A program made the translations under genes and the position numbers. A stretch of DNA of 43,997 nt from a virus (Duplodnaviria > Heunggongvirae > Uroviricota > Caudoviricetes). Location of the stretch: IMG/VR virus record IMGVR_UViG_2778261068_000003, positions 1 through 43,997 of that record; one strand, given 5' to 3'. The notes under the pieces are model-generated. The model saw only the letters and a list, made by a program, of their open reading frames with translations. It was not told where the DNA came from and searched no databases. Every line of letters starts with the position of its first letter. The stretch's first letter is position 1. Shown piece by piece: positions 21,183 through 42,612 of the stretch.

Positions 21183-21731
21183 GTGAAGGTTAACAAAAAG
21201 AAACTAGCGGAAATTTTTGAGTGCGATGTCAGAACAATCACTGGCTGGCAAAGTCAGGGGCTGAGAGTTTTGTCGGGGGGAGGCAAAGGTATCGAGGCCA
21301 TGTTCAATACAGCAGAAGCCATTGAGTGGTATGCGCAGCGGGAAAAAGATATCGAAAACGAAAAGCTCCGCAAAGAACTGGAAGATTTGCGTGCGGCTGC
21401 AGAATCAGATTTACAACCCGGCACCATTGACTATGAACGCTACCGGCTCACCAAAGCACAGGCTGACGCACAGGAGCTGAAAAATGCCCGCGAAGAAGGG
21501 CTGGTGCTGGAAACGGAATTGTTTACCTTCATTCTGCAACGTGTGGCACAGGAGATTTCGGGGATACTTGTACGTGTGCCGCTGACATTACAGCGTAAAT
21601 ATCCGGATATTTCACCATCACACCTTGATGTGGTGAAAACTGAAATCGCGAAAGCCTCCAATGTTGCAGCTAAAGCCGGTGAAAACGTGGGCAGGTGGAT
21701 TGATGATTTCAGACGCACAGAAGGCAGCTAA
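21183..21731 (+). CDS. terminase small subunit (lambda Nu1-like)
   Basis: [27 protein letters not shown]...[28 protein letters not shown]... is co-linear with lambda gpNu1; GTG start. Confidence 0.9.
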
Positions 21732-23619
21732 TGCAGCCGGTGCGATAGCTACAGGGCTTTTATCTCTTAATATTCCGGTTCCACTGACGACGGTTCAGTG
21801 GGCTGATCAACATTATTATCTGCCGAAAGAATCTTCATACACTCCCGGACAATGGGAAACCCTGCCGTTTCAGGTTGCCATTATGAACAGCATGGGAAAT
21901 GACCGGATCCGCACCGTTAATCTGATTAAATCGGCGCGCGTTGGTTACACCAAAATGTTGTTGGGGGTGGAGGCTTATTTTATTGAGCATAAATCCCGTA
22001 ACAGTCTGCTTTTTCAGCCAACAGATTCTGCTGCAGAAGATTTCATGAAATCTCATGTTGAGCCAACGATCAGGGATGTCCCTGCATTGCTGGAGCTGGC
22101 TCCATGGTTCGGAAGAAAGCACCGCGATAATACACTCACCCTGAAGCGTTTTTCCTCCGGCGTGGGCTTCTGGTGCCTGGGCGGTGCCGCTGCTAAAAAC
22201 TACCGTGAAAAATCTGTGGATGTGGTCTGCTATGACGAACTCTCCTCGTTTGAGCCGGATGTGGAAAAAGAAGGTTCGCCGACGCTGCTTGGTGATAAAC
22301 GTATCGAAGGCTCGGTATGGCCTAAGTCCATACGCGGCTCAACGCCAAAAATAAAAGGTTCCTGTCAGATTGAGAAAGCCGCGAATGAATCTGCGCATTT
22401 CATGCGGTTTTATGTTCCCTGTCCTCATTGCGGGGAGGCCCAGTATCTGAAGTTTGGCGATGATGCGACGCCGTTTGGTCTGAAATGGGAGAAGGGTAAA
22501 CCCGAAACGGTGTATTACCTGTGTGAACATAATGGCTGTGTGATCCGCCAGTCGGAACTTGACCAGACTGACGGACGCTGGATTTGTGACAATACCGGGA
22601 TGTGGACGCGTGACGGCCTGATATTTTACAGCGCCGGTGATGAGGAGATGCCGCCACCGCGCTCAATCACTTTCCACATCTGGACGGCGTACAGTCCGTT
22701 CACCACATGGATGCAGATTGTCTATGACTGGCTGGATGCACTGAAGGATCCGAACGGCGTCAAGACGTTTATTAACACCACGCTCGGGGAGCCCTATGAA
22801 GAGGCTGTGGCAGAAAAACTGAGCTTTGAGTTGTTGCTGGAAAAAGTCTGTCACTATGGCGCGCAGGTTCCCCTGCGGGTGGTTTACCTGACTGCAGGGA
22901 TCGACTCCCAGAAAGATCGCTATGAAATTTATGTCTGGGGCTGGGCACCCGGCGAAGAAGCCTTTCTGATTGACAAACAAATTATCATGGGGAGACCGGA
23001 AGACGAGGACACACTTAAACGTGTTGATGCGGTGATCCGGAAAAAATATCGCCATGCTGACGGCACTGAAATTTCCATTTCCCGCGTCTGCTGGGATACC
23101 GGTGGTATCGACCAGGATATCGTGTATCAGCGTTCCAGAAAGCACGGCACTTTTTTTGTGCTTCCCATAAAAGGGGCATCGGTGTATGGCAAACCGGTGA
23201 TCACCATGCCCAAAAAGCGAAACCCGCGTGGGGTGTTTTTGTGTGAAGTGGGTTCCGATACCGTCAAGGAAATGCTGTATGCCCGTTTTGCCCTGCCGGT
23301 GGTCCCTGTCAGTGAAGCGGCCCCGTATACTTTCCGCTTTCCGGATAACCCGGACATTTTTTCAGAAGAAGAGGCGCGTCAGATAGTGGCGGAAGAGCTG
23401 GTGGAAAAGGTGGTTAATGGCAGGGTGAAACTGTTGTGGGATAAAAAAGGGCGGCGCAACGAAGCCCTCGACTGTCTGGTGTATGCCTATGCTGCCCTGC
23501 GTATTTCAGTACAGCGATGGCAGCTGGATCTTGAGGCACTGGCGCGGGCAAGAAGAGATGAGCAGGATGAGGATGATATGAGTCTGGAAGAGATTGCGGC
23601 TGCACTGAGTGGAGGGTAA
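21703..23619 (+). CDS. terminase large subunit (lambda gpA-like)
   Basis: Extensive co-linear similarity to lambda gpA (...[12 protein letters not shown]...[14 protein letters not shown]...[13 protein letters not shown]...[11 protein letters not shown]...); start at the internal Met at 21703, overlapping Nu1. Confidence 0.95.
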
Positions 23620-23832
23620 GTGATGATTTATACACATGAGATGCTTTGCGAAGCGCGTCGGGCGCTGCATGAACTGATGATCGGGCGTGCTGTGGTTTCT
23701 GTCAGTAAGAACGGACGACAGGTGCAGTATTCGCGGGCGACAATTAATGAGCTACGGCGATATATTGAAGAAATTGAAAGTGCGCTTGGAATCTCCGGTC
23801 GTCGCCGTGGCCCTGCAGGAGTAAGACTGTGA
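23620..23832 (+). CDS. head-tail joining protein (lambda gpW-like)
   Basis: ...ARRALHELMIGRAVVSVSKNGRQVQYSRATINELRRYIEEIE...RRRGPAG... resembles lambda gpW. Confidence 0.8.
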   Translation: MMIYTHEMLCEARRALHELMIGRAVVSVSKNGRQVQYSRATINELRRYIEEIESALGISGRRRGPAGVRL

Positions 23833-40840: not shown

Positions 40841-41349
40841 TAAATATGGTGGATATTGTTGGCTGGGGAGTGAACCGGCTTGAGCGGGAGGCATGGGATG
40901 CTGTTGGCTCCCTGACGGATGTCGGGTCGCGGGTGCTGCTGTCATTCGGTGAATTTGAGTTCAGTATTGACACGGCGGCCTATAACACAATGAAACGAAA
41001 TATGGCCTGGCGCTGGGATGAACAGCAGCTTATCGGAAAAAGTGACTTGCTGCAGTACACCGGAAAAAGCGCAAGAACAATAACGCTGGAGGGTATGGTG
41101 CATGCCGGATTTCGTGATGGCGTGGGGATGGATGCGCTGGATAAGCTGATCTTCATGGTTGATGAAAAACCGGCACCCCATCTGCTTGTTTCCAGTACGG
41201 GAGATTCAATGGGGTATTTTGTGGCCACGGCTTATTCGGACAACACAACCTCCTTTCTTCCCGGCGGTGCGCCAAAAAACAAAACGTTCACACTGGAGCT
41301 GAAATATTATGGCGAAAAACTGGCGGACGACAGACGGCGACATGCTTGA
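40837..41349 (+). CDS. tail protein (P2 gpU-like)
   Basis: 170-aa ORF translationally coupled after the tape measure gene, at the gpU position of P2-type tail operons. Confidence 0.65.
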   Translation: MINMVDIVGWGVNRLEREAWDAVGSLTDVGSRVLLSFGEFEFSIDTAAYNTMKRNMAWRWDEQQLIGKSDLLQYTGKSARTITLEGMVHAGFRDGVGMDALDKLIFMVDEKPAPHLLVSSTGDSMGYFVATAYSDNTTSFLPGGAPKNKTFTLELKYYGEKLADDRRRHA

Positions 41350-41527
41350 TGATATCTGCTGCAGGCATTATGGCATAACCGGGCTTAATCAGTCTCTGGC
41401 AACCGTACTGGAGGCTAATCCGGGGCTGGCTGACCTTGGCCCGGTATATCCGGCAGGTGTGGAAATAGTGCTGCCTGACTGGTCATATGAGCCGGAGGAA
41501 CAGGAGGCGTTTCAGCTATGGAACTGA
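41309..41527 (+). CDS. tail protein X (P2 gpX-like)
   Basis: ...GDMLDDICCRHYGITG...VLEANPGLADLGPVYPAGVEIVLPD... resembles P2 gpX; an alternative start is the Met at 41342. Confidence 0.7.
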   Translation: MAKNWRTTDGDMLDDICCRHYGITGLNQSLATVLEANPGLADLGPVYPAGVEIVLPDWSYEPEEQEAFQLWN

Positions 41528-42612
41528 ATGAATACTGTCCTGATTTCAGTCTGTCAGCAGAAGGTGAAGACATTACGCAGGTAATAAAACGGGGGCTTGC
41601 AGAACTGCATTACACGGATAATGGTGCAGCAACAAAACAGGCGGATGAGCTGGTGATAACGCTGTTCAGCGAAACCCTGTCATTACCTCCCAAAGGGGCG
41701 CTGCTGCGTCTGGGACTGGGTTTTAACGGAAAACTGGTAAATAAAGGGACGTTCACCGTCTGCCAGGTGGCAAGCAGTGGTCCACCCCGCAGAATCACTG
41801 TCTCAGCCACATCGGCCCCCATGAATGCATCAAAACATGGTGCGGATGTGACCGCGCTTAAAAACCGTGCTTTCAGCGATATTACGCTGGGGGACCTGGT
41901 GAAAACAATCGCCACTGAAAATAATCTGGTGGCGCGGGTCTCACCGGCGCTGGCGAAAATCCGTATTCCGTGGGTGATGCAGTCATCAGAATCTGATGCG
42001 TCGCTGTTATCGCGGCTTGCAGCCATGTACGGGGCCACCAGTAAACCGACGAACGGTTACTGGTTGTTCCTGGAGTATGGCGCCTCACAGAGTCCGTCCG
42101 GCAGGGATGCACCAGCTCTGACCATTACACCGGATATGGTTTCGGGCTGGAGTTATACAGAGGGAGAGCGCGGAGGGGCATCCGGCGTGAGTGGTGAAAA
42201 AAAAGGTAAGGTTGGGGTCAGATATTTTGAACAGAGTACGGGACGGACGCGTGAGCATACCGTTGATGTGGAGTCCACAGATAAGCGTCATCCGTTTACC
42301 CAGGCAGATAAAGGTGCGGCAGAGCACAGCGCACAGGCAAAGGTCAGGCGGGTACAGAAATCCGGACGCCGGATGACAATAACACTGCCCTGCAGGCCAG
42401 CGCTGCTGAAAGCGGGGGCGGAAATGCGTTTTATCACGCAGGGATTTGGGGTACGTGAGGATCATAACTGGCAGGCAGAGTCGGTGGAGTTCTCACTGGT
42501 ACCAGGCCAGGGATTTACACTGAATCTGTCGCTGTCCACAGATATTTCCGCGAAAGGACAGGAGTCAGGGAAGAAAAAAGCCGATAAAAAAGGGGTGAAT
42601 TATTATGGATAA
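41518..42612 (+). CDS. tail protein D (P2 gpD-like late control/tail protein)
   Basis: 364-aa last gene of the tail operon, at the gpD position. Confidence 0.8.
   Translation: MELNEYCPDFSLSAEGEDITQVIKRGLAELHYTDNGAATKQADELVITLFSETLSLPPKGALLRLGLGFNGKLVNKGTFTVCQVASSGPPRRITVSATSAPMNASKHGADVTALKNRAFSDITLGDLVKTIATENNLVARVSPALAKIRIPWVMQSSESDASLLSRLAAMYGATSKPTNGYWLFLEYGASQSPSGRDAPALTITPDMVSGWSYTEGERGGASGVSGEKKGKVGVRYFEQSTGRTREHTVDVESTDKRHPFTQADKGAAEHSAQAKVRRVQKSGRRMTITLPCRPALLKAGAEMRFITQGFGVREDHNWQAESVEFSLVPGQGFTLNLSLSTDISAKGQESGKKKADKKGVNYYG

Follow-up and report, generated by a model that had tools for sequence, protein, structure and literature searches.

A lambda-type head and a contractile tail in the predicted late operon of a lambdoid prophage from a long-established lineage

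How does a prophage come to encode a head of the phage lambda type and a contractile tail of P2-family proteins in one run of genes, and where does the one give way to the other? The question is raised by a stretch of viral DNA (Caudoviricetes) of 43,997 nucleotides, IMG/VR record IMGVR_UViG_2778261068_000003, the whole of which is called the window here. The virion region that was followed up extends from 21183 to 42612, with all genes from 21183 onward on the plus strand. An original prediction, made from the sequence alone, had described it as a mosaic in which lambda-like packaging and head genes are joined to a P2-like tail module through two unassigned genes at 29316-30601. As set out below, 21183-42612 very probably forms one late operon for the virion of an intact-looking lambdoid prophage, whose particle would combine a lambda-type head with a contractile tail, and it is a product of a long-established lineage rather than of a fresh exchange. 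Every virion gene has a family assignment, and overlapping or abutting genes run across the supposed junction. Because the family E-values lie far beyond chance, the underlying observation is correct, and the assignments bear out a single co-directional virion operon combining a lambda-type head with a contractile tail of P2-family proteins.

The packaging and head genes had been predicted to be co-linear with those of lambda, and nine Pfam families, from Nu1 through A, W, B, C, D, E and FI to FII, are indeed present in lambda order, each above its curated cut-off and at 29-66% identity. The features of this part of the operon, with BLASTP identities to the lambda proteins, are the following:

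about 20960-21170 (+), candidate lambda-type cos region (alignment with the lambda cos junction)
21183-21731 (+), Nu1, terminase small subunit (PF07471, E 3e-85; lambda Nu1 53%)
21703-23619 (+), A, terminase large subunit (GpA_ATPase and GpA_nuclease domains; lambda A 66%)
23620-23832 (+), W, head-tail adaptor (PF02831; lambda W 47%)
23829-25418 (+), B, lambda-family portal protein (PF05136, E 3e-95; lambda B 61%)
25399-27024 (+), C, S49 prohead protease/scaffold (PF01343; lambda C 53%)
27064-27399 (+), D, head decoration protein (PF02924; lambda D 56%)
27469-28497 (+), E, major capsid protein (PF03864; lambda E 59%)
28548-28931 (+), FI, DNA-packaging chaperone (PF14000, phrog_92; lambda FI 29%)
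28931-29335 (+), FII, head closure / tail attachment protein (PF05354, NF049848, phrog_82; lambda FII 33%)

Identity to lambda falls from 59% in E to 29% in FI and 33% in FII, and FII is 32-36% identical to its homologues in the lambdoid phages Chris1 and yong2. The open reading frame of A opens at 21661; an in-frame ATG at 21703, behind AGGTGGA, aligns with residue 1 of lambda A and is most likely the start codon. The C protein, at 541 residues, is about 100 residues longer than lambda C. Upstream of Nu1, the lambda-type cos site that had been proposed is recognizable by its layout, with a cosQ-like ACGGGTCCTTTCC, a conserved CGCTATTTATGAAAATTTTC box and three R-like terminase-binding repeats (AGATCCGTTCTTCTT and variants), whereas the resemblance does not extend to the cosN core, which is taken up again below. 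As a separate observation, the 5′ part of Nu1 (21183-21601, the first 419 bases) matches the fragment of Escherichia phage SerU-LTIIb (KU052038), which is an LT-II enterotoxin prophage, at 98% identity. In the window, the interval from the lysis genes to Nu1 showed no toxin genes.

The tail genes, which begin at 30585, were predicted to follow P2 in both order and similarity. The P2 tail families from V to D were found, as listed here:

30585-31208 (+), V, baseplate central spike with an H-x-H apex motif (TIGR01644; P2 V 27%, Chris1 57%)
31243-31599 (+), W (gp25-like), baseplate wedge (PF04965, GPW_gp25; P2 W 37%)
31574-32488 (+), J, baseplate wedge (PF04865, Baseplate_J; P2 J 40%)
32481-35042 (+), I, baseplate wedge with a long C-terminal extension (PF09684, Tail_P2_I; PF02368, PF13306, TIGR01634)
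35056-36093 (+), H, tail fibre (PF12571; partial similarity to P2 H)
36096-36638 (+), G, tail-fibre assembly chaperone (PF02413, Caudo_TAP; P2 G 35%)
36694-38169 (+), tail sheath, FI-type (PF04984, PF17482; P2 FI 37%, yong2/Chris1 61-63%)
38166-38684 (+), tail tube, FII-type (PF04985; P2 FII 22%, Chris1/yong2 46-48%)
38786-39225 (+), E and E+E′ tail assembly chaperones, with E at 38786-39088 (PF10109, Phage_TAC_7; translations)
39206-40840 (+), T, tape measure of 544 residues (phrog_3654 and several tape-measure PHROGs; Chris1/yong2 37-40%)
40837-41349 (+), U, baseplate central piece / tube initiator (PF06995; P2 U 32%)
41309-41527 (+), X, LysM-type small baseplate protein (PF05489; P2 X 50%)
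41518-42612 (+), D, baseplate hub (PF05954, GPD; phrog_52; P2 D 37%)

The V protein scores 75 bits against TIGR01644 (phage_P2_V), for which the cut-off is 46.75. The similarity to P2 is lower than had been supposed, since the tail proteins are only about 22-40% identical to their P2 counterparts (X 50%), the 37% match of the sheath to P2 FI covers part of the protein, and P2 E and T have no counterpart in the window that BLAST can detect. The order departs as well, X having moved and the whole arrangement being that of the R-pyocins. Identity to the tail proteins of Chris1 and yong2 is about 40-63%, and among phages the sheath is nearest to that of Hafnia phage yong2, at 62%, and that of Citrobacter phage Chris1, at 61%. 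A BLASTP comparison of the two modules, which had been proposed as a check, therefore finds the head related to lambda (47-66% from Nu1 to E) and the tail nearest to Chris1 and yong2, not to P2. Across the whole window, tblastn (E <= 1e-3) gave no match for the lambda tail proteins Z, U, V, G, H, M, L, K, I and J, nor for the P2 head proteins Q, P, O, N, M and L. No ogr-sized zinc-finger gene was noticed after D, nor any P2-type late promoter, no dedicated search having been made for either.

If the tail is not a P2 tail in any close sense, where does the lambda-like part end? At the DNA level the only phage matches are to lambda/21-like siphophages, at 75-78% identity (megablast), and this similarity ends by query position 7315, which is 28497 in the window, the stop codon of E. 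The joint had been placed within 29316-30601, whereas siphophage similarity has already ended after E, and the point of exchange with lambda-like siphophages is accordingly placed, from the DNA alignments, between E and FI/FII. The two genes that had been taken for the joint are referred to below as jx1 (the gene at 29316-30038) and jx2 (the gene at 30038-30601):

29316-30038 (+), jx1, probable gpZ-class tail-completion (Neck1) protein, 240 residues (phrog_27, E 9e-27)
30038-30601 (+), jx2, predicted tail terminator of the R-pyocin collar (PA0615) type, 187 residues (profile match to 6u5f_A; phrog_1072)

A scan of species-representative genomes with a jx1 alignment yielded 18 loci, in Enterobacter, Citrobacter, Scandinavium, Pantoea, Rosenbergiella, Erwinia, Rouxiella, Serratia and Providencia, onto which the proteins of the window and of Chris1 were mapped. 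Sixteen of the 18 are long enough to include flanking genes, the other two (L022 and L023) being short fragments. In all 16 informative Enterobacterales loci, FII, jx1, jx2 and V occur in this same order, and these four genes are the most stable part of the array. What lies on either side of them varies. A lambda C/D/E head is found upstream in the window, in an E. coli locus (L005), in Erwinia L010 and in Serratia L017, and a Chris1-type head in 13 of the 14 other loci (the head of L014 falls mostly outside the fragment). Downstream, the order V-W-J-I-H-sheath is shared by the window, L005, L017 and Serratia rubidaea L021; the order V-sheath...D-W-J-I is found in the other 13 loci (L015 only partly covered), as well as in Chris1 and yong2. 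Each of the two head types occurs with each of the two tail gene orders, and the breakpoints of the tail rearrangement are V|W (31208/31243) and G|sheath (36638/36694). Since the block from FII to V is constant whichever head lies upstream, jx1 and jx2 are not a joint.

What, then, do these two genes encode? PGAP labels their equivalents in E. coli strain 401651 hypothetical; neither gives a match in Pfam or NCBIfam even at E <= 10, and a direct sequence search of PDB chains returned nothing useful for either. They are closely packed between their neighbours, with overlaps of 20 nucleotides between FII and jx1, 1-4 between jx1 and jx2, and 17 between jx2 and V. For jx2, profile comparison points to a tail terminator of the collar type of contractile tails. 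A small jx2 profile already reached the R2-pyocin collar PA0615 (E 2e-4). From the representative library 345 relatives were collected, and a profile of 124 aligned sequences (the window protein and 123 others, mostly from that search) matches the PA0615 collar (6u5f_A) with an E-value of 9e-34 over positions 3-172 of 185. Five family members match Pfam Phage_tail_terminator or Mu Gp37, and Foldseek with the jx2 model retrieved an unbroken run of tail terminators, namely those of the pyocin collar, Mu, T5 (p142), phage Milano, lambda (gpU), T4 (gp15) and the diffocin collar. The jx2 profile has no similarity to P2 gpR (0.7% probability in hhalign) and a weak link, confined to the N-terminus, to lambda gpU; the small jx2 alignment had no hhalign match to either protein.

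The jx1 product is probably a tail-completion protein of the gpZ class. Its entire length is covered by a match to phrog_27 ('tail completion or Neck1 protein', E 9e-27), the family into which lambda gpZ also falls (E 3e-69). It lies between FII and the terminator, as does Z in the lambda order FII-Z-U, so that lambda-like synteny would run on through jx1 and jx2, and in the Wolbachia WO phages a gene annotated as 'minor tail protein Z' stands directly upstream of the jx2 homologue. An hhalign comparison of 40 members of the jx1 family with lambda Z and Wolbachia Z proteins gave a weak, full-length, collinear match over 163 columns (57% probability, E 1e-4), which emerged only with the alignments enlarged by the WO Z proteins and by homologues taken from the related loci; a small jx1 alignment matched neither single lambda gpZ, nor P2 gpS, nor a 25-sequence gpZ alignment. 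The description of these genes as adaptors at a junction consequently gives way to that of a PA0615-type terminator and a probable gpZ-class protein, both of them within the constant block.

The tail module also contains the E/E′ pair that had been predicted, and its recoding site could be located. A -1 slippery heptamer, T_TTT_TTG, lies at 39046-39052 (+) in the frame of E, and the -1 frame is open from there for 59 codons to a TAA at 39223-39225, overlapping the start of T. P2 has a -1 frameshift at the equivalent place, and E′ would thus be made by a -1 frameshift at 39046-39052. An open reading frame at 39012-39230 was considered as E′ and rejected, being in the +1 frame. Terminator-like hairpins are found at several points of the operon:

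27421-27445 (+), strong hairpin and T-run after D (kept in the E. coli relative)
28502-28520 (+), strong hairpin and T-run after E (kept in the E. coli relative)
36655-36676 (+), terminator-like hairpin at the boundary between fibre block and sheath (kept in E. coli L005 at 18809-18826)
38704-38762 (+), two tandem terminator-like hairpins after the tube gene, at 38704-38719 and 38743-38762 (z -3.7)

The first post-tube hairpin is kept in E. coli L005 at 20854-20871; it and the hairpins after D, E and G recur at homologous E. coli sites, in part with altered stem or loop bases. Internal terminators had been thought to mark module boundaries, and hairpins do exist there, but only the one at 36655 falls at a module breakpoint (G|sheath). 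The others follow D, E and the tube, the proteins needed in highest copy number, and those after D and E are probably message stabilisers or attenuators, not module markers.

Two tail proteins stand out by their size. The I protein has 853 residues, compared with 176 in P2, with the P2_I domain followed by a Big_2 immunoglobulin-like domain and then by BspA-type leucine-rich repeats. It is only 49% identical to its equivalent in an otherwise close E. coli relative, and its extension may be a second receptor-binding module borne on the wedge. The tape measure, with 544 residues as against 815 in P2, predicts a tail of about two thirds the length of that of P2, and it is among the least conserved of the tail proteins (76% in the E. 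coli relative).

Could the array nonetheless have arisen recently, by a lambda-like siphophage that had lost its own tail genes taking over Peduoviridae tail operons together with two novel adaptor genes at the joint? The gene names and order do resemble the V-W-J-I-H-G and FI-FII-E-T-U-D of P2, the lambda-like DNA similarity does stop abruptly after E, and jx1 and jx2 are, to PGAP, hypothetical. Such an origin is nevertheless extremely improbable, and it is largely refuted by the low identity of the tail to P2 and by the far closer tail relatives that already exist in lambdoid genomes. The terminator is of the PA0615 type and unlike P2 gpR, X is between U and D and not in its P2 position, and jx1 and jx2 accompany FII and V in different genera, and even in the distant Wolbachia WO phages. 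The idea of a fresh lambda x P2 hybrid is thereby replaced by that of an old lineage. It is also very unlikely that two adjacent elements, making no common particle, have been read as one, for example a tail-less defective lambdoid prophage beside an R-type tailocin or a defective P2-like remnant. The tail block does have the order of a headless R-pyocin cassette, with a PA0615-type collar included, and terminator-like hairpins do separate its sub-blocks; yet from FII to V the genes follow one another without a break and overlap, neither between the blocks nor beyond them is there another regulator, lysis cassette or integrase, and a tailocin would have no use for FII or a gpZ-class gene. Head and tail are, moreover, kept as a unit in several genera and in E. 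coli, where 41 complete genomes contain the entire 21.4-kb module at about 87% nucleotide identity.

A different objection accepts the architecture as described and holds that the prophage is cryptic, no longer making infectious particles. Many enterobacterial lambdoid prophages are defective, and the cosN of this one is divergent; against this, 24 of 24 structural open reading frames are undamaged and have the length to be expected, the frameshift site is likewise preserved, and the Int, repressor, replication, Q and lysis genes are present. Loss of function is considered unlikely, though less so than the two readings just discussed. The reading of 21183-42612 as one virion operon of an intact-looking prophage is thus retained, with several points to be set against it. 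The 12-base cosN core, where the cohesive ends would be expected, is unlike that of lambda. The virion is a prediction from the genes; no electron microscopy of a close relative was found, and the 'vB_EcoM' names of some relatives originate from an in-silico prophage study. The AlphaFold2 model of jx2 is weak (predicted local distance difference test, pLDDT, 46), so that the assignment of jx2 leans mainly on the sequence profile. The jx1 protein lacks a match to Pfam Minor_tail_Z (PF06763), its smaller alignments reached only 0.2% probability against gpZ in hhalign, and its AlphaFold2 model is of low confidence (pLDDT 62.8). The fold search that had been suggested for the two proteins thus succeeded for jx2, with its list of terminators, whereas for jx1 no fold was matched and, outside the PHROG, the link to gpZ is weak. 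Finally, read-through under Q and the roles given to the hairpins are inferred.

From the gene families, their order and their nearest relatives, all of which are direct observations, we infer an assembly pathway. The Nu1/A terminase would recognize the lambda-style cos and fill a capsid of E and D that has been processed by C and carries the B portal, with FI aiding packaging; W and FII would then close the portal and offer a docking surface for the tail. The tail would be assembled separately, on a baseplate formed by the spike V, the hub D, U, X and the wedges W, J and I, chaperone G folding fibre H. Tube length would be set by the tape measure T in complex with the chaperones E/E′, and tube and sheath would polymerise next. 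A hexamer of jx2 would presumably cap both tube and sheath, the jx1 product would complete the tail, and FII would link the head to the terminator. The operon is presumably transcribed from a Q-dependent late promoter; if so, the internal hairpins would be read through and would mainly tune or stabilise the message after D, E and the tube.

The surroundings of the operon are those of a lambdoid prophage, with the following landmarks:

1086-2204 (-), lambda-type integrase
14754-15449, Q antiterminator

The prophage also has a cI-like repressor, a DnaC-like replication gene, a holin and a GH108 endolysin. In its early region it is Rac-like, with an 819-residue protein at 2504-4963 (-) that carries a C-terminal 3′-5′ exonuclease domain and occupies the position of RecE, and with a YdaT-family protein at 7291-7812 (+) adjoining the repressor. 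Beside the integrase, at 261-1066 (-), is an ORF6N antirepressor-like gene, and Rfam matches in the same interval include a C4 antisense RNA (868-951), isrK (977-1053) and the c4 a1b1 target (1014-1066); by these matches, 261-1066 appears to be an antisense-controlled antirepressor unit of the P1/Gifsy type. An Rfam sok antitoxin RNA at 12160-12309 (+, 105 bits) indicates a putative hok/sok-type toxin-antitoxin locus in the early region. On the other side, nadE lies 560 bp beyond D, and the host flank at 42613-43997 (nadE and neighbours) is 89.6% identical to each of 5,426 E. coli genomes, which makes the host an Escherichia-like species other than E. coli.

The locus does not open a new biological question. 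It does provide a clean and well-populated example of modular exchange, in which two head types and two tail orders are found around one and the same neck block (FII, the Z-class gene, the collar and the spike). It also allows functions to be assigned, with the strengths given above, to two genes that standard annotation still calls 'hypothetical' in thousands of Escherichia sequences, and for annotation it implies that such prophages should be predicted as myoviruses despite their lambda-like heads.

How does the window compare with systems already known? Close relatives are found in E. coli. The prophage of strain 401651, integrated in ydfJ, has the same gene list, the two hypothetical genes included, with identities of 93-98% from Nu1 to E, 96% in FII, 74% in FI, 93% in jx1 and 96% in jx2; it differs in its divergent I, H, G and T (49-76%), in its integration site and in its host species. 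The deposited E. coli phage records vB_EcoM-705R4, -569R10, -783R5 and -720R5 share the series from Nu1 to FII, the two hypothetical genes and V to D, and are distant in sequence (sheath 46%, jx2 27% in the 705R4 group). Chris1 (ON041214) and yong2 (MZ516527) resemble the window in having a lambdoid early region (cI/cII/O-like), a gpA-type terminase, gpW, a lambda-family portal and the block of FII-like, jx1-like, jx2-like and V genes. They differ in that they have a fused ClpP-protease/capsid protein and another decoration protein where the window has lambda C/D/E, and in carrying the W-J-I-H-G block after D, whereas in the window it follows V.

Lambda itself shares the head families and their order through FII and the layout of cos, and jx1 and jx2 would fill the roles of gpZ and gpU in the same order. 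Its tube protein V, G/T, H, M, L, K, I and J are absent from the window, its cosN core is different, and the terminator of the window belongs to the collar type of contractile tails, its sequence link to gpU being weak. P2 shares the tail protein families and their order, the chaperone pair with its -1 frameshift, and the presence of two tail-completion genes just upstream of V. It differs in its head genes, which are not the type found in the window, in the position of X (between L and Y), in its tail-completion proteins (gpR belongs to phrog_65 and gpS to phrog_26, and not to phrog_1072 and phrog_27 as do jx2 and jx1), and in its tape measure, that of the window being one third shorter.

The tail order of the window is that of the R-pyocins. 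Their structural cassette comprises PA0615-PA0628, in which PA0616 is the spike, PA0622 the sheath, PA0626 the gpU-like central piece, PA0627 the LysM orthologue of gpX and PA0628 the hub; the full R-pyocin gene order was reportedly set out by Nakayama in 2000. With the collar identified by sequence and the other genes by role and order, both systems would read collar-V-W-J-I-H-G-sheath-tube-E-T-U-X-D. The R-pyocins are headless and lack FII and a gpZ-class gene, whereas the window has a complete head module overlapping the tail cassette. It is conceivable, although tentative and on balance doubtful, that a portable neck cassette, made up of FII, the gpZ-class protein and the PA0615-type collar, is able to dock any head with a lambda-family portal to a contractile tail of the P2/R-pyocin type, that jx1 is a gpZ-class protein at work in a contractile tail, and that this lambda-head lineage is closer than P2 to the ancestor of the R-pyocins, since collar type, position of X and gene order are common to it and the R-pyocins and not to P2.

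The architecture as such is old, widespread and already described, and the window is a further member of the lineage that has it. A literature search on the literal wordings 'lambda-like head' and 'P2-like tail' returned no paper, but the Wolbachia WO phages have been reported to combine lambda-like packaging and head genes with a P2-like baseplate and tail, and the Xylella phages XfP1 and XfP2 likewise (PMC3235987). Homologues of jx2, 25-30% identical, were found in 11 WO records beside Z and a gpV-like gene. The WO phages have a lambda-like terminase, portal and C upstream of Z, then the PA0615-like gene, and a P2-like V, W, J and sheath; what sets them and the Xylella phages apart is their very distant hosts. 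The window thus has the combination of lambda head and contractile tail that characterizes chimeras of both the WO and the Chris1 type.

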